Position numbers and translations under genes: made by a program
Shown: one piece after another, positions 10,884 through 24,022 of the stretch
Layout: the number at the start of each line of letters is the position of its first letter
How positions within the stretch are numbered: position 1 is the first letter of the stretch
The notes under the pieces: generated by a model
The model's database searches: none
What the model saw: the letters and a program-made list of their open reading frames with translations, nothing else
What the model was told of the DNA's origin: nothing
IMG/VR virus record: IMGVR_UViG_3300032579_000006
DNA length: 52,418 nt
Strand: one strand, 5' to 3'
DNA from: a virus
Lineage: Duplodnaviria; Heunggongvirae; Uroviricota; Caudoviricetes

Positions 10884-12365
10884 ATGAATTATGTAGGTGT
10901 CAGTTGCGGGTTTCACGACGCTGGATTGAGTGTCATTGATGATGCTGGCAATATCCTATACGCCGGCCACAGTGAACGATACAGTAAGAAGAAGCATGAC
11001 GCTGATCTTTGTTTAGGCTTATTAAAAGATGCCCACAAATATATAGATGGGCATTATGAGCTTCATTATTATGAGAAGCCTTGGTTAAAGGTAATCCGCC
11101 AGCTCAGAGCTGGACAGAAGTTAGGACCTTTCTCTGCAAAGGATGTCATCGGTAAAAACATGATGGTTCGTTTTAGCCATGACGGAGAAGTGAAAACACA
11201 CAATCATCACTTATCTCATGCTGCTGCTGGTTTTCAAACTAGTCCATTTGACCATGCTACTGTAGTCATTATTGATGCTATCGGCGAGTTAGATACGATT
11301 ACTATCTGGGATGCGTATTATGATGATAACGGTAGAGCCGTATATAAGAGGCTTTGGGGAAAGCAATATCCAGATTCTATCGGTTTATTCTATTCTGCTA
11401 TGACTGCGAAAGTAGGACTGAAGCCATTAGATGAAGAATATATTCTTATGGGAATGGCTGCTTACGGTAAACCTATTCATGTTAATACGATTCAAAAAGC
11501 GTTGATTCATAATAGTGGTACATTATCTTTCAAAGAAAATCTACATACCGGGGTGAGAGATGATTTCCTCAAAGATGCTGATAATATGGATATAGCTTCA
11601 TCTACTCAAGAACTTACTGAAAGTTTGATACACCATGTCATAGCAAAAGCTATTAATATCGGTAAAAGTCATAATCTTGTTTTTGGTGGAGGAGTCGCAC
11701 TCAACTGTGCAGCAAATCGTAATCTAGGCGGATACTTCGATAACATCTGGATCATGCCTAATCCGGGTGATGCAGGAAACTCATTGGGTGCTGCTGCATT
11801 AGGTTATGGAAAACGAGTAAATTGGGTCGATGCCTTTTTAGGATATAATATAAAAGGCAAATATCCTATTAACAATGTAATTAACCAATTGTATACTAAG
11901 AAGATGGTTGGTGTTGCTAGCGGACGAGCCGAATTCGGTCCTAGAGCATTAGGCAATCGTTCACTATTAGCAGATCCACGCGGCCCTGATATAAAGGATA
12001 CAGTAAATGAAATCAAGCGAAGACAGCAGTTCAGACCCTTTGCGCCGGTCATTCTGGAGGAACTATGTGGCGATTATTTTAATATGCCTTGCGGTTGGAA
12101 CAACAGTAGGTATATGCAAGTCATCGCTCCTTGTAGGGCTCCTGACTTATTTCCTGCTATCGTTCACGCTGACGGGACTTCTCGTGTACAGACAGTACCG
12201 AAAGACGGTTCGGGAATCAGAAGACTCTTAGAACGTTGGTATAATGAGACACGCTGTCCAATGCTACTTAATACATCCCTAAATATTAGAGGTGAGCCTA
12301 TGGTAAATGACCGGGCAGATGCTGATCGGTTCCAGCTACTATATGGGGTAAAAGTCTGCTCTTAA
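10884..12365 (+). CDS. Carbamoyltransferase, NodU/CmcH family
   Basis: GFHDA, ERYSKKKHD, HHLSHAA, GGVALNC, PGDAG, EFGPRALGNRS, FRPFAP, DGTSRVQTV, LNTSLNIRGEP. Confidence 0.95.
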   Translation: MNYVGVSCGFHDAGLSVIDDAGNILYAGHSERYSKKKHDADLCLGLLKDAHKYIDGHYELHYYEKPWLKVIRQLRAGQKLGPFSAKDVIGKNMMVRFSHDGEVKTHNHHLSHAAAGFQTSPFDHATVVIIDAIGELDTITIWDAYYDDNGRAVYKRLWGKQYPDSIGLFYSAMTAKVGLKPLDEEYILMGMAAYGKPIHVNTIQKALIHNSGTLSFKENLHTGVRDDFLKDADNMDIASSTQELTESLIHHVIAKAINIGKSHNLVFGGGVALNCAANRNLGGYFDNIWIMPNPGDAGNSLGAAALGYGKRVNWVDAFLGYNIKGKYPINNVINQLYTKKMVGVASGRAEFGPRALGNRSLLADPRGPDIKDTVNEIKRRQQFRPFAPVILEELCGDYFNMPCGWNNSRYMQVIAPCRAPDLFPAIVHADGTSRVQTVPKDGSGIRRLLERWYNETRCPMLLNTSLNIRGEPMVNDRADADRFQLLYGVKVCS

Positions 12366-12368
12366 AGC

Positions 12369-12445
12369 ATAAATAGATGTGAGTCGCGGGACTGCAATCC
12401 CCACTCACTCTAATGCTAGAAGGAGCTATCAGCATGTCTATTTAT
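12369..12445 (+). ncRNA. Conserved structured leader (late promoter + multi-stem RNA) of HNH gene 1
   Basis: ATAAATAGA(12369-77) pairs with TCTATTTAT(12437-45); GTGAGT/ACTCAC stem; GGGA-CTGCAA-TCCC tip; GCT/AGC stem around AAGG. Near-copy at 23181-23260 on the minus strand. Confidence 0.7.
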
Positions 12446-13096
12446 CGTAAAATTTACGAACAGAATTTTGGTCCCATACCCAAAGACGGTGACGGAAGAA
12501 GTTGCGATGTTCATCATATAGATGGTAACCGCAATAATAATGTACCGGAAAATTTAATCGCATTGTCTATACAAGATCATTACGATATTCATTATCAGCA
12601 AGGAGATTATGGTGCATGTTGGCTCATTTCAAGAAAGCTACGGTTGACGCCAGAGGAACTATCAGACCTCGCCAAATTAACCGGCGCCAACCGCATCGCA
12701 AACGGCACACATCACTTTTTAAAAAGGCCAGATGGGTCATCGTTAGGAAAAGACAGTGTACTCAGACAAACTGAAAACGGGACGAATGCTTTCTCTGGAG
12801 GAGAAGTTCAAAGAAAATCTAACGCTAAGCGAGTGAGGGAAGGAACTCACCATTTTCTTAGTGGTGATATACAAAGAAGAACTCAACAAAGGTTGGTGGA
12901 GAACGGGACTCATCATTTAATGGGGAACGGAGAATTTCAACGAAATGTTCAGAAAACATTGTTAGAGAATGGAACTCACCACTTTCTTACGAATCATCCA
13001 AATAAAATTCAGGTAACTTGTCCGCATTGCAACAAAACTGGCGGAAAAACTAACATGCATCGATACCATTTCGATAAGTGTAGGGTCTTAAAATAA
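12434..13096 (+). mobile_element. HNH homing endonuclease with GTHHF repeats and C-terminal Zn finger
   Basis: DVHHIDGNRNNNVPENL...H..IH; five NGTHHF-type repeats; CPHC...HFDKC. AAGGAG SD before ATG 12434. Confidence 0.85.
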
Positions 13097-13128: not shown

Positions 13129-15669
13129 ATGGCAATTAGAGAAGTATTCTACTCCGGTTCCAAACCCAATGTCCATCCAAGAGAAAAATTTGCTGAATCA
13201 CTAGAAGATGCTAGGAATCAGTGTACGACTGAGCATTTTTGGATTATCAACGAGTTTTGTGACTACCGTAAATTTGATTGGGACTTTGATTTCGAGCTAT
13301 TACCTGACGAAGATATTTGGGCAGAGGCACACGACAATGTATGGCCTAGCCAACATCAAAAAGATAGTGGTACATGGCTGTGTCCTAAGGTAGCCGGTGA
13401 TTATACTATCTATCGAACCGATGTTCCCCCAATTCAACGCAAGAATGAAATCAATGATTTTTGGATTATAGATCCGGCCCTGGATAAATCTAGGTTTGAC
13501 TTTTCTTGGCACCCAGATCCTACGTCTCCTCCATACATATATCAATTCGGTACTCTGCTCGATGAAAACGACGGACCCAGATACGTCACTCCCTATAATG
13601 ACGGAACCATAGTACATCTAGAACGCAAGGAGGTCATACTAGAAGACCTAGAGTTTTCGAAGTACTACATCACTACTACATTGGAAGATTTAATCAACGA
13701 CCACACTAATGAAATCTTTTGGGCATTGAATCCTGAAATTGATTATTCTGGGTTTGACTTTAAATGGGTCCCTGACAGTAAGAACGTATATCACATAAAT
13801 GCATTTGGTACGAAAGACAATATAAACTCCCAGACTTACTTTGTTAATGGTAAGATGTGGGCACGTGGTTATCGGGACATTAACTACATTGAGGATAAGG
13901 TACTAGATGTACGAACCAAGATCGATATTTTCTTTGTCGATAAAGGAAATCCTCAGGCACAAGAACGCTTTCAGCAATTATCTGAGCGTATGGGCAACGT
14001 AACTAAAACTAGATATCTGAACAGCTGGGTTGACACGATCAATCGTTGTGTGACTAAATCAACTACCAATCTATGTTGGATTCTCAATAGTGAATTAGAC
14101 TATTCGTCATTTGAGTTTGATTTCTATCCTAGCCCATGGCAGATGAACTTAGTTCATGTGTTTGGAACTCAGTGGTCACACTGGGGAACAACCTTTATGG
14201 TTAACAAAAATACATTTGCTGATGATACCAAATATATAAAAGTCATTGAGCATTTGCCTAATATAAATTTTGTAAAACGATCACCTGCTAAGGCAGTTGA
14301 TTGTCTTTATGCTATAGTAATCATCGACCATGGTAACGGTGTTGATACAGTAAAAGATGATCTACTCAGTAAAAATCTGAGCGAAAGAAACATCATTGCT
14401 GTGAAATATGATACCAATTATCTAAAAACATTCAAGGAGGTACTCAGTAAATTAGATGTCAATCGTGAACATTATGTATGGATTTGTAGTAGCGTGTGTG
14501 ATTATAGCAGATTTGATTTTAGCTATATCTGCGATCCGTACACCAAAGAACAACTCCACGTCTTCCCGAGCGGTAATCAAAAATTAGGAGACACGTTTCT
14601 AGTAAACGTCAACAAGCTGCGCAAATTGATAGCAGATATGCATCGTCTAGAAGACTATGAAAAGATTAATTATAATCAACATCAAGTTGTCTCAAGATTG
14701 ATGACACCCACAACTATCGAAGGTGCATATTTTCCAAATGAAACACATATGGATTATGCTAGAAATTATGAATGGGATTTTCCTTATGTAACTCTAGTAA
14801 CTGAAGAAAACTGGGATATGGATCCTGAAATTGATCCCGAACCTATGTGTCTTTGGTCACCCGAACAGAAAGCAATCATTATTTCTAGTACAGGTGCAAC
14901 TAGAGTTACGATTCCTCGCGAGGCTAAAAACTATGTCAAAAGTGAACTGTATGATTACCCGTATATAAAGCGAGCAAAAAAACTAACCAAATCTAAACCG
15001 ATGGACATAGTGTATCTCAGTAACGGTGAAGCCGGGGCCGAAAAAAACTGGGAGCATCTACTTCAAATTACTAAAAACATACCAAATAGGGTAGTCAGAG
15101 TGGATGGAGTTAATGGTCGAGTTGCTGCATATCATGCTGCTGCCGAAGCCAGCGAGACACCATGGTTATTTACGGTATTCGCTAAGTTACACATCAATTC
15201 TAATTTTGATTGGTCATGGCAACCAGATCGAATGCAAGCACCTAAGCATTATATCTTTCATGCGAAGAATCCGGTCAATGGATTGATCTACGGTCACCAA
15301 GCGATGATCGCGTATAATAAGCAATTAGTGCTAGAGAATGACGGTTATGGACTAGACTTTACGTTGGATGACCTGCACGAAGTTGTTCCACTCATGTCCG
15401 GTACTGCAAACTATAACACTGATCCGTTCTCTACTTGGCGTACCGCATTCCGTGAAGTGGTCAAATTGAAGGCCGAAGATACCGACATTGCCCGAGAGCG
15501 ATTAGAAGCTTGGCTTACTAAAGCTGAAGGTGATTTTGCAGAATATAGCATCAAGGGTGCAAAAGACGCAGAAGCCTATTACGATGAAGTTGATGGCGAT
15601 TTTGATGCACTGCGATTGAGCTACGAGTGGGAATGGTTAAAATCACGCTTCGTGCAAAAATACGGTTGA
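13129..15669 (+). CDS. 846-aa protein of tandem glycosyltransferase-like domains
   Basis: Motif W(I/A)(I/L)x4-5D(Y/K)xxF(D/E)(F/W) recurs about 6 times. Last domain has DIVYLSNGE..AEKN, RVDGVNG..AYHAAA, FSTWRTAFREVVKL. Confidence 0.65.
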   Translation: MAIREVFYSGSKPNVHPREKFAESLEDARNQCTTEHFWIINEFCDYRKFDWDFDFELLPDEDIWAEAHDNVWPSQHQKDSGTWLCPKVAGDYTIYRTDVPPIQRKNEINDFWIIDPALDKSRFDFSWHPDPTSPPYIYQFGTLLDENDGPRYVTPYNDGTIVHLERKEVILEDLEFSKYYITTTLEDLINDHTNEIFWALNPEIDYSGFDFKWVPDSKNVYHINAFGTKDNINSQTYFVNGKMWARGYRDINYIEDKVLDVRTKIDIFFVDKGNPQAQERFQQLSERMGNVTKTRYLNSWVDTINRCVTKSTTNLCWILNSELDYSSFEFDFYPSPWQMNLVHVFGTQWSHWGTTFMVNKNTFADDTKYIKVIEHLPNINFVKRSPAKAVDCLYAIVIIDHGNGVDTVKDDLLSKNLSERNIIAVKYDTNYLKTFKEVLSKLDVNREHYVWICSSVCDYSRFDFSYICDPYTKEQLHVFPSGNQKLGDTFLVNVNKLRKLIADMHRLEDYEKINYNQHQVVSRLMTPTTIEGAYFPNETHMDYARNYEWDFPYVTLVTEENWDMDPEIDPEPMCLWSPEQKAIIISSTGATRVTIPREAKNYVKSELYDYPYIKRAKKLTKSKPMDIVYLSNGEAGAEKNWEHLLQITKNIPNRVVRVDGVNGRVAAYHAAAEASETPWLFTVFAKLHINSNFDWSWQPDRMQAPKHYIFHAKNPVNGLIYGHQAMIAYNKQLVLENDGYGLDFTLDDLHEVVPLMSGTANYNTDPFSTWRTAFREVVKLKAEDTDIARERLEAWLTKAEGDFAEYSIKGAKDAEAYYDEVDGDFDALRLSYEWEWLKSRFVQKYG

Positions 15670-15695
15670 CATGCAATGTCATATATGATTAAATA
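15666..15695 (+). promoter_or_regulatory. Overlapping sigma70-like and TAAATA late promoters for tmRNA
   Basis: TTGACA(15666-71)-17 nt-TTAAAT with TG extended -10; TAAATA at 15690-95. Confidence 0.65.
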
Positions 15696-15699
15696 GTAT

Positions 15700-16030
15700 T
15701 TGTTCGTTGATACGGACTTAAAACCGGGGAAGACAGGGGTGCGATTCCCCTCGCCTCCACCAGTAAACACACGATAACAGGACGCTGGCTCTGTGAAGCG
15801 GGATATCGGGGTAGCTGCCGAGAAGACGGGGAGAGCATCGTGTGTTTTCTTATGGGGGCGTATAGTATCGATTCACGGCTAGTAGGAAAGTGGAGAACAC
15901 GGTAAGAAACGACCGTCAATCAGTTCAAATTACTAAATGCAAACGAAAATGATGCATATGAAGGCCTTGCGTTAGCCGCATAAGTCTTTTGGGCTTTGCT
16001 AGTTGAGCCTCGAAACAGAATCAACTAGCA
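15700..16030 (+). ncRNA. ssrA: Circularly permuted (two-piece) tmRNA
   Basis: Acceptor piece first: GAC-AGGGG/TGCGATT/CCCCT T-arm, CGCCTCC-A-CCA ending 15762. Coding piece starts GGGGGCG at 15854 and pairs with it (G3:U70). Resume context TAAAT-GCA; tag ANENDAYEGLALAA* at 15939-15983; 3' hairpin TGCTAGTTGA/TCAACTAGCA. Ends are approximate. Confidence 0.93.
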
Positions 16031-22323: not shown

Positions 22324-22561
22324 CGACATTAACATAAATCAGTGGTTCATGGACCGAGAATTAAGTCATACCCCTGAACATTTTATAAGATCAAGCACTC
22401 CTTTTACTATCGAGTCGCGCATGTGGATTTTGGAAAGCCTTCAAGGCAGATTTTCTACACATTACCCCAACACATCGACCTATATTATGAATAGAATAGC
22501 ACTTTGTCCATCGTTTGAAGATCCACAAGAAGCAGTGTTTTACGAACTCAAGTGGGGCTAG
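22310..22561 (+). CDS. Small protein, 'FxxExDxxxFxLxW' family
   Basis: GTG start; ends SFEDPQEAVFYELKWG. Confidence 0.6.
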   Translation: MKTIDDININQWFMDRELSHTPEHFIRSSTPFTIESRMWILESLQGRFSTHYPNTSTYIMNRIALCPSFEDPQEAVFYELKWG

Positions 22562-23192
22562 GTCTTACTAGTTCCCACCCTCCAGTAGCGTTAAGTCCTT
22601 TGTTATTTACAATACGACTAATTGCACCGGACTTGAGATTATAACATGTCCTTAATTGATAATTCGTCATTGATACTACCTCCCCGGTCATACGATTTTT
22701 CCAAGTTCTAACAGTATGGTCATACTGCGGATGTTTTTCTTTTTTCTTGGGGTCATTAACAAAATGATGAGTCCCGGCAGCAAGTCTGTTTAATTGTCGT
22801 TTACTGGCAGCTTCCCTGTCCAACCAATTATGTGTTCCATTAAGAATGCGGTCTCTGTTTAGTTGCGCTTGGTGCTTGTTGGGCCCAACCCAAGGATGCT
22901 TGCCCGTTTTAACTAGCTTGTTAGCATTTTTTGTTGCGAGGGCTACTAGCTCATCGGGAAGTAAGTTGATCCTACTTGACATTTTTACACAAGCTGCCCA
23001 ATCACCCTGTGAATAATGAATGTTGTAATGTTCTTGTATAGATACACATTTCAAGTTAGCAGGATTATTATTGGAATGATTTCCGTCTATATGATGTATT
23101 TCATATGACCGACCCGACTCTTCCTTAGGAATTGGACCGTAGTGATGTTCATAGATATTACGGTACTTGTTTGTACCACAATAAATACACAT
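22548..23192 (-). mobile_element. HNH homing endonuclease, paralog of 12434-13096
   Basis: YRNIYEHHYGPIPK, EIHHIDGNHSNNNPANL, GTH(N/H)(W/F) repeats. It is the only clear minus-strand gene in the window. Confidence 0.85.
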
Positions 23193-23260
23193 GCTGATTG
23201 CTACTTATAAGCTGTTAGAGTGAGTGGGTACTAGTAATACTGCGACTCACACTTATTTAT
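23181..23260 (-). ncRNA. Conserved structured leader of HNH gene 2
   Basis: Reverse complement reads ATAAATA-AG-TGTGAGTCGC-AGTATTACTAGTAC-CCACTCACTCTAA-CAGCTTATAAGT-AGCAATCAGCATG-TGTATTTAT, aligning with 12369-12445. Confidence 0.7.
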
Positions 23261-23317
23261 CTTTTTTATACCAACACACCCTACTCACTAAATACTTTTA
23301 GCAAAGGAGAATTAATA

Positions 23318-24022
23318 ATGTCATTTATCCGCCATGTAGGGAAGCACGGAGACCGTAAGGTAGCAATTGTATTTCGGGAAGTGCCCGGTGAACCCCATAT
23401 GTGTCTAGTAGTGTATACGGAACTACTCAATCAGAATATTCACGATCCGATGATTCAATGCATCGAAAGCGATATTGGTCAAAGCAGTGAAGACCTAGCT
23501 AACGCACTTAACCGGTCTTACACCAAAGATGGACAACTTATTCTACAGAAGTTACATGCTGAAGGTATGTTGAAGAAGGTTCAGACTGAACATATCGTTA
23601 TGACACCTGCACCAAACACAAGAATCAAGCTCAATGAGCTTAATAAGATTCTAGACGAAATGAAGCAAGGTGAGCAAGCAGTAAAGAAGCTAGCTGAAAT
23701 GGACAAGCAGATGGGTATGCAAGACCCAATGCAAGTCGCTAAGAGAATGCGCGGCGATAGTGAACCAAAGCCCACAGCACCAGTGGGGCTTCAAGCAAGC
23801 GGTGATGCTTTAGGTGATTCGGTATTAGCTAACAATCTTCGTCAACAAGCAGAACGCATGAGTGCAGAAGCTAAGGGGCTACTAACCGAAGCAGATCGGT
23901 TACTCAATGAAGCCCGGTCGTTAGATCCAACTGTAGTGCCACAAGCAACTACGGTTTCGGTAAAAACATCCGAAGATAAGAAGACACGAGGTAGACCAAA
24001 GAAGGTCACCATTACCGCATAA
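23318..24022 (+). CDS. Hypothetical late protein
   Basis: TAAATA at 23289-94, AAGGAG SD, 234-aa ORF with coiled-coil C-terminus. Confidence 0.8.
   Translation: MSFIRHVGKHGDRKVAIVFREVPGEPHMCLVVYTELLNQNIHDPMIQCIESDIGQSSEDLANALNRSYTKDGQLILQKLHAEGMLKKVQTEHIVMTPAPNTRIKLNELNKILDEMKQGEQAVKKLAEMDKQMGMQDPMQVAKRMRGDSEPKPTAPVGLQASGDALGDSVLANNLRQQAERMSAEAKGLLTEADRLLNEARSLDPTVVPQATTVSVKTSEDKKTRGRPKKVTITA

Follow-up and report, generated by a model that had tools for sequence, protein, structure and literature searches.

A compact cassette of ~85 bp stands ahead of homing endonuclease genes in an uncultured freshwater phage, and it appears to be a cis-antisense control tied to these genes that is undescribed as an RNA family. 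The conserved fold of the cassette very probably lies on the antisense strand, i.e., opposite the endonuclease gene. In the reading that we favour and hold to be reasonably probable, the cassette consists of two face-to-face late promoters, the inner of which makes an antisense RNA of ~65–70 nt that would hold nuclease output low.

Among the selfish genes of large phages, homing endonucleases are the commonest. To our knowledge, the tolerance of phages for many endonuclease copies is understood for a few T-even genes only, each of which has its own mRNA hairpin. If the proposed control is true, one antisense-RNA cassette common to HNH and GIY-YIG genes would amount to a general form of control dedicated to such elements. 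Rfam would gain a large new RNA family, strand-specific folding encoded by G·U pairs would have a clear example in nature, and the cassette could serve in metagenomic phages as a ready marker for annotating late promoters and free-standing endonuclease genes. A natural misreading is corrected as well, as the element looks like an mRNA leader when its sequence is read and was apparently taken so in 2009.

The window (the whole stretch of DNA that was analysed, 52,418 nucleotides) belongs to an IMG/VR virus record of 258,859 bp (IMGVR_UViG_3300032579_000006), which has a GC content of 40.6% and a CheckV completeness estimate of 73%. The sequencing runs that match the window DNA are lake-metagenome DNA runs. 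The phage genome encodes a T4-like terminase, UvsX, RnlA, portal protein, and prohead protease. An initial annotation of the window had described structured leaders before two HNH genes, one on each strand, and both copies were confirmed. Their parts are as follows.

12369–12375, plus strand: sense late-promoter box ATAAATA of copy 1; the opposite strand contributes to the U-rich tail predicted for the antisense RNA
12379–12408, minus strand: P2 hairpin of copy 1, 11 bp with two bulged invariant residues, antisense-selected; together with the U-run, the predicted terminator
12410–12432, minus strand: 5′ hairpin of the predicted antisense RNA of copy 1, CUGAU:AUUAG (one G·U) followed by GCU/AGC
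12439–12445, minus strand: putative antisense late-promoter box of copy 1, TATTTAT on the plus strand (HNH codons 2–4) and ATAAATA on the minus strand
12366–12433, minus strand: predicted antisense RNA of copy 1, ~68 nt, with its presumed start at the G opposite C12433 and its presumed end in the U-run
12434–13096, plus strand: HNH_3 free-standing homing endonuclease gene of copy 1, 220 aa, I-TevIII-like
23254–23260, minus strand: sense late-promoter box ATAAATA of copy 2
23220–23250, plus strand: P2 hairpin of copy 2, in which an A·C cell on the gene strand is a G·U on the antisense strand
23194–23218, plus strand: 5′ hairpin of the predicted antisense RNA of copy 2, whose loop ACUUAUA faces the degenerate Shine-Dalgarno sequence AAGTAG
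23181–23187, plus strand: putative antisense late-promoter box of copy 2, within gene codons 2–4
23193–23262, plus strand: predicted antisense RNA of copy 2, ~70 nt, both ends presumed
22548–23192, minus strand: HNH_3 free-standing homing endonuclease gene of copy 2, 214 aa, opposite to both flanking genes

The leaders of both HNH_3 genes follow the same order, namely ATAAATA, an outer stem with a variable tip, CTCTAA, a GCT/AGC stem, ATCAGC, ATG, and TATTTAT. A composite pattern matched twice in the window and not once in 100 shuffles. In copy 1, the outer stem GTGAGT/ACTCAC pairs 12379–12384 with 12403–12408 and carries the tip GGGA/TCCC. The GCT/AGC stem pairs 12415–12417 with 12424–12426 and encloses AGAAGG, after which CAGC occupies 12430–12433 and the ATG begins at 12434. 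On the antisense strand, the loop of the 5′ hairpin reads CCUUCU, which complements the Shine-Dalgarno sequence of the HNH gene. In copy 2, the outer stem pairs 23250–23245 with 23225–23220, the ATG lies at 23192–23190, and TATTTAT lies at 23187–23181. The leaders of the two copies are ~77% identical and the proteins 39%, which bears out the earlier remark that the non-coding part is conserved while the proteins have diverged. The HNH protein of copy 1 is 37% identical to I-TevIII of T-even phages at 98% coverage and matches phrog_12324 (E = 4.5e-48). The Shine-Dalgarno sequence of copy 2 is degenerate (AAGTAG for AAGGAG; window 23200–23212, minus strand), although its cassette and reading frame are intact. 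The gene at 23318–24022 of the window, which diverges from copy 2, has its own CTAAATA box (23288–23294).

No known RNA family accounted for the leader. Searches of both strands against Rfam 15, which includes RNA-OUT and HEARO, gave a tmRNA as the sole match in the window at gathering thresholds and nothing in the region 12300–12500 at E ≤ 10. Four further candidates were discarded by eye: a hammerhead, twister or pistol core; a tRNA T-arm; an extended Shine-Dalgarno complementarity to 16S rRNA; and a pairing of AUCAGC with the 5′ strand of P3, which had no covariation.

A covariance model found 8 copies of the cassette in the 259-kb genome, where relaxed matching had earlier given 5, and 122 cassettes in the first 100 IMG/VR loci. 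A pattern made of the unpaired motifs only found at least 115 IMG/VR loci, ~110 of them true members, and three further pattern scans listed 112, 119, and 102 loci, two of these counts being lower bounds. In total, IMG/VR holds at least several hundred copies, in uncultured lake, compost, and soil phages, which agrees with the original view of a portable, structured, covarying regulatory cassette tied to endonuclease genes. Several cassettes lie on one jumbo-phage contig in IMGVR_UViG_3300032675_000001 (360,683 bp; loci L040 and L055) and likewise in IMGVR_UViG_3300032242_000723 (333,115 bp; loci L065 and L140), suggesting that multi-copy carriage is common. In GenBank, Variovorax phage V45v66, which infects Variovorax sp. 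SCN45, has one cassette (85986–86077), ahead of a GIY-YIG gene, and none ahead of the gene for its best HNH relative. No cassette lies upstream of I-TevIII in phage Bp7. A blastn search of two leaders against 50,697 phage records gave chance matches only, and a megablast search of the locus gave no match.

The cassette is found nearly always ahead of free-standing homing endonuclease genes, which belong to unrelated families (HNH and GIY-YIG). The 8 genomic cassettes precede putative homing endonuclease genes of the HNH_3 type (3), the 'IYLYKKTHN' type (4), and the 'YIYAYVR' GIY-YIG type (1). Among 89 complete downstream ORFs, the commonest PHROGs were homing-endonuclease/HNH families, namely phrog_314 (43), phrog_655 (21), and phrog_12324 (11), and the Pfam domains were NUMOD3, HNH_3, HNH, HNH_5, and GIY-YIG. 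The initial annotation had also considered an RNA cofactor or an autoregulatory site of one HNH family; as the cassette serves unrelated nuclease families, such a role for one HNH protein is unlikely. Intact cassettes at genome positions 132502–132596 (plus strand) and 97173–97266 (minus strand) precede truncated endonuclease frames of 35 and 75 aa, respectively, and ~10% of the IMG/VR cassettes precede frames of 9–60 aa. The cassette may outlive its gene, or these short frames may be frameshifts or sequencing errors.

RNAalifold recovered the long hairpin P2 from 106 unique leaders. Seven of its 11 pairs change on both sides, and 97.9% of the cells are paired. The GTGAGT/ACTCAC stem with its varying but pairing tip stands as first described. 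The GCT/AGC stem around the ribosome-binding site is also present, and the corresponding short helix P3 around the Shine-Dalgarno sequence covaries in the same 106 leaders. P2 has two bulged C residues, G when read antisense, that were invariant in 122 of 122 aligned copies and lie at 12385 and 12387 and at 23244 and 23242 of the window. Left unexplained by every model considered, they may be a protein-recognition site.

The pairs that depart from Watson–Crick geometry indicate which strand folds. In 347 unique cores, the P2 cells read on the gene strand comprised 3336 Watson–Crick, 126 A·C, and only 3 G·U combinations, and the P3 cells comprised 1028, 12, and 0, respectively. The A·C cells of P2 represented 90 distinct pair-and-stem contexts, compared with 3 for G·U. 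A first listing of non-Watson–Crick cells, the loop-closing pair excepted, had likewise contained A·C or C·A on the gene strand and never G·U. An A·C on the gene strand is a G·U on its complement, and therefore the helices have been selected in the nucleic acid that is read opposite the endonuclease gene. Sense T-to-C and G-to-A changes both contribute, so a single mutation bias does not explain the A·C excess. When 102 copies were aligned in antisense orientation, 99.4% of 1628 cells paired and 12 of 16 pairs changed on both sides, whereas shuffles reached 80.3 ± 0.6% and slid partners 31–54%. Position G50 was fixed by the scan pattern, and its partner was C in 83 copies and T in 1.

The antisense strand also explains two invariant motifs that had seemed unpaired. 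CUAA(Y) and (R)UCAG, the core of ATCAGC, pair mutually on the antisense strand only, where C53–G93 and U54–A92 are Watson–Crick and A55·C91 becomes an invariant G·U. Where free to vary, pair 56–90 was AT in 114 copies, AC in 46, and TA in 3, with T56 always accompanied by A90, and pair 57–89 was CA in 69, TA in 51, and CG in 35, with G89 always accompanied by C57. Together with P3, these pairs form an 8-bp antisense hairpin with a 7-nt loop that complements the Shine-Dalgarno sequence. With identical bases, the antisense strand was predicted to fold more stably than the sense strand in 325 of 347 cores (mean −17.2 vs. −12.7 kcal/mol, p = 4e-56), an average advantage of 4.5 kcal/mol. The extended 5′ hairpin was present in 340 of 347 antisense minimum free energy structures and in 62 of 347 sense structures, and the predicted folds left the translation initiation region mostly open on the sense strand. 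The two-hairpin fold of copy 1 was predicted at −19.2 kcal/mol antisense and −15.5 kcal/mol sense, and that of copy 2 at −13.9 and −9.8 kcal/mol, respectively.

This strand preference bears directly on the mRNA-strand translational switch that the initial annotation had proposed. In its fullest form, this would be a sense leader of the kind known from T4 I-TevI and Aeh1 mobE: in read-through transcripts, AUAAAUA would pair with UAUUUAU, close a three-way junction and mask the start, and transcripts from the late promoter, which lack the 5′ arm, would be translated. The mechanism is established for T-even endonuclease genes, where late promoters lie within masking hairpins of I-TevI, I-TevII, I-TevIII, segB, and Aeh1 mobE (PMC2988022). 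The cassette shares with them a T4-type late promoter directly upstream of a homing endonuclease gene and a complement of it near the start codon. The complementarity of ATAAATA and ATTTAT is real and is retained in nearly all copies, and the full-length fold of copy 1 contains the junction (−26 kcal/mol, z = −3.0). However, predictions give the long-range helix that it should form a low probability (mean 0.23, median 0.04), the predicted accessibility of the ribosome-binding region shifts merely from 0.50 to 0.57, and the full-length fold of copy 2 is no better than shuffles (z = +0.6). The T-even hairpins are gene-specific, stable, and on the mRNA, whereas the cassette folds on the other strand, and it has neither a predicted stable mRNA helix, confined to read-through transcripts, that buries the Shine-Dalgarno sequence or AUG nor signs of selection on the mRNA strand. 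In the copies inspected, the positions flanking the boxes had no consistent compensatory change. Seventeen of 347 copies lack the sense box and yet retain TATTTA; next to the stem they also keep an A-run, which reads as a U-run in antisense.

For most of the genomic cassettes, gene orientation also speaks against a sense leader. Five of the 8 genomic cassettes, including copy 2, are opposite to both neighbours and thus diverge from the upstream one, so a sense read-through mRNA is not expected there; the other 3, including copy 1, are co-directional. A T4-type mask could operate on such co-directional cassettes and could coexist with an antisense RNA. As the main explanation of the cassette, a sense leader is unlikely.

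Similar metagenomic hairpins have nevertheless been interpreted in the sense direction. Dassa et al. (2009; PMC2677866) found hairpins in 15 of 16 5′ UTRs of free-standing endonucleases of metagenomic fractured genes. Ten of these hairpins included TATAAATA, two conserved motifs were mutually complementary, and several loci were from Lake Gatun. Judged by this text description, these hairpins are probably the same element as the cassette. They were regarded as mobE-like translational hairpins of the mRNA, and the account of them there contains no strand analysis, family definition, or antisense RNA.

The boxes on either side of the fold have the form of late promoters. A NATAAATA box, the sequence accepted as the late promoter in T4-like cyanophages (PMC2984593), lies 3–5 nt before P2, directly upstream of the endonuclease gene. 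In the genome, 69 of 91 ATAAATA sites are intergenic, although intergenic DNA makes up only ~12%, and many of them sit a short way ahead of genes; this sequence is the form that the T4-type late promoter takes here. The phage also has a late sigma factor (phrog_12791, E = 6e-75; phrog_234, E = 4e-22), which weakly resembles T4 gp55. Its gene lies outside the window at genome positions 145893–146786 on the minus strand (locus L424, 694–1587) and encodes 298 aa, compared with the 185 aa of T4 gp55; the phrog_234 match is confined to the C-terminal third. A query with T4 gp45 gave no match in the genome, a result that is uninformative as the record is ~73% complete.

The inner box is conserved at the nucleotide level. 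TATTTA lies 3, 4 or 5 nt after the ATG and is thus read in all three frames (12, 11, and 70 of 109 cases), which argues against conservation at the protein level. It is the reverse complement of the late box of this genome, its flank likewise avoids T at position −1, and TACTTA occurs as a natural variant of it. In the subsets unconstrained at these positions, a spacing of exactly 5 nt is the commonest for both boxes: it separates the inner box from the first base of the antisense 5′ hairpin in 124 of 158 copies and the outer box from the base of P2 in 117 of 176. Frames, flanks, and spacing thus place an antisense promoter, at the level of sequence only, inside the 5′ end of the gene and facing the sense promoter. 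A palindromic pair of late boxes, CACTAAATA ... TATTTAGTG, is situated between two divergent genes outside the window (genome 139730–139752) and shows that this phage uses late boxes back-to-back and face-to-face at other places too. Several late boxes of non-endonuclease genes (genome 39567, 40085, 51702, 98251, and 250955; window 23288–23294) appear, by eye, to have a hairpin-forming inverted repeat within a few nucleotides after them. Hairpins at the 5′ terminus may be common on the late mRNAs of this phage.

In the favoured antisense model, each ~85-bp cassette would contain two face-to-face T4-type late boxes ~65 bp apart. The outer box, ATAAATA, would start the endonuclease mRNA at the base of P2. 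The inner box, on the opposite strand in codons 2–4 (TATTTAT), would start the antisense RNA at the G whose partner on the gene strand is the C just ahead of the AUG; the box-to-start distance used here is assumed to be that of T4 late promoters. The antisense RNA would comprise, in order, the 8-bp 5′ hairpin with its 7-nt anti-Shine-Dalgarno loop, one linker nucleotide, P2′, and ACUUUUAUUUAU. P2′ and this U-run would form an intrinsic terminator that overlaps the sense promoter. Against this, the U-run begins 2 nt past the stem and is interrupted by A, and a simple terminator scan of copy 1 did not call the hairpin, probably because the stem is bulged. The antisense RNA, ~65–70 nt long, would show full complementarity to the endonuclease 5′ UTR. 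Its predicted extent, from the sense promoter up to the nucleotide ahead of the AUG, covers the translation initiation region.

The invariant or frequent G·U pairs allow the helices only in the antisense RNA, so the ribosome-binding region of the mRNA would stay open. A folded regulator facing an open target is the arrangement that a first contact of the loop-to-linear kind requires. The loop of the antisense RNA would base-pair with the exposed Shine-Dalgarno sequence, and the duplex would then spread across the whole 5′ UTR and block ribosome binding, possibly with recruitment of RNase III to the mRNA:antisense duplex. Antisense transcription, termination as described, and the repressive effect are all three deduced from sequence, and we consider it rather probable that a regulatory antisense RNA is made from the cassette. 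Both boxes are of the late type, so that the mRNA and the antisense RNA would be made simultaneously, and the regulatory logic may be a threshold, damping or protection. Since an antisense RNA can stabilise an mRNA instead, as the title of one paper has it (PMC3113571), repression is the presumed direction of the effect here.

The closest working model for the cassette, by analogy, would be the action of IS10 RNA-OUT on RNA-IN. RNA-OUT of IS10/Tn10 is an antisense RNA of ~69 nt whose promoter lies within the gene; it overlaps the sense promoter and blocks ribosome binding, and it acts in trans, with repression that rises with copy number (PMC5006887). As modelled, the cassette shares with it convergent promoters, the antisense one lying within the 5′ end of a mobile-element gene, and a stem-loop antisense RNA directed against the initiation region, with its 3′ part overlapping the sense promoter. 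In contrast to IS10, the cassette has phage late-type boxes, a predicted RNA with two hairpins, and an overlap with the whole 5′ UTR (~65 nt vs. 35 in IS10); its target is a homing endonuclease rather than a transposase, and no sequence or Rfam relation connects the two. In IS200, the art200 RNA is similarly a structured sRNA that is encoded in cis, on the strand facing the 5′ UTR of the gene of the element, with pairing probably initiated at loops and 30S binding blocked (PMC4513863). However, the IS200 mRNA hides its own Shine-Dalgarno sequence in a stem-loop, whereas the cassette folds the antisense RNA only and leaves the mRNA open. A T4-like phage offers a further parallel, as described in PMC2984593: CfrI of cyanophage S-PM2 (Millard et al. 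2010) is an antisense RNA opposite a homing endonuclease gene. By that description, it differs from the compact, portable 5′-end cassette in being ~225 nt long and in spanning the endonuclease gene and psbA.

An antisense RNA of this kind could act beyond its own gene. Non-cognate cassettes in the genome have exact common runs of 7–31 nt, and the nucleation segments are nearly identical between cassettes, so the antisense RNAs could act in trans on other copies. It is therefore conceivable, though we put this forward tentatively and with some doubt, that the cassette is a portable governor whose antisense RNA acts in trans throughout the cell, on all cassettes present and thus also on any that a co-infecting phage brings, so that the nuclease load would limit itself with copy number.

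P2′ and its U-run resemble a terminator on the antisense strand only, and they might therefore act as an insulator and nothing more. In such a case, a one-way terminator would halt transcription that runs backward, from neighbours or a chance promoter, through the endonuclease gene before it reaches the upstream gene, and no regulatory RNA would be involved. The 5 of 8 cassettes that oppose their neighbours, and are consequently crossed by flanking transcription in the antisense direction, are consistent with this. However, a terminator leaves unexplained the second covarying hairpin, the anti-Shine-Dalgarno loop, and the invariant G·U. It equally leaves unexplained the frame-independent promoter-like box 5 nt from the hairpin and the near-invariance of the paired CUA and CAG segments. 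Insulation alone is accordingly an improbable account of the cassette.

Some bulges and segments are invariant beyond what cis-pairing needs, and intact cassettes stand ahead of decayed frames of 9–75 aa. Such features would suit a small RNA that is itself the main product, either a trans-acting sRNA or a protein-binding RNA such as a sponge for a host or phage factor, and the overlap of its promoter would make the endonuclease genes hard to delete. T4 endonuclease genes are known to embed promoters needed by their neighbours (PMC2988022). Nevertheless, the cassette is almost confined to endonuclease genes, as judged by the PHROG matches of the 89 downstream ORFs, it has no Rfam match, and no other target or partner is known, which makes this explanation decidedly less credible than antisense control. 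Least probable, and hardly to be expected, is a fold of the antisense strand as single-stranded DNA, such as might arise when the DNA is replicated, recombined or repaired after homing. G·T is the best-tolerated mismatch in DNA, so strand asymmetry alone cannot separate RNA from DNA, but the promoter box, hairpin, and U-run are ordered as a transcription unit, the loop complements the Shine-Dalgarno sequence, and no DNA-level role is known for such a site.

Two other features of the window and genome were recorded. The tmRNA at 15662–16029 of the window (plus strand) is permuted and was matched by the Rfam models tmRNA_permuted (113.8 bits) and alpha_tmRNA (78.2 bits), which hints, at the level of model similarity, at an alphaproteobacterial host. 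The gene for the T4-like portal protein (gp20) lies outside the window at genome positions 133415–136474 on the minus strand (locus L425, 4916–6949) and contains an intein splicing domain with an embedded HNH_3 motif. The genome around ~131–133 kb is the portal/protease module, and two cassettes (131477 and 132502, both plus strand) adjoin the intein-bearing portal gene in the opposite orientation.
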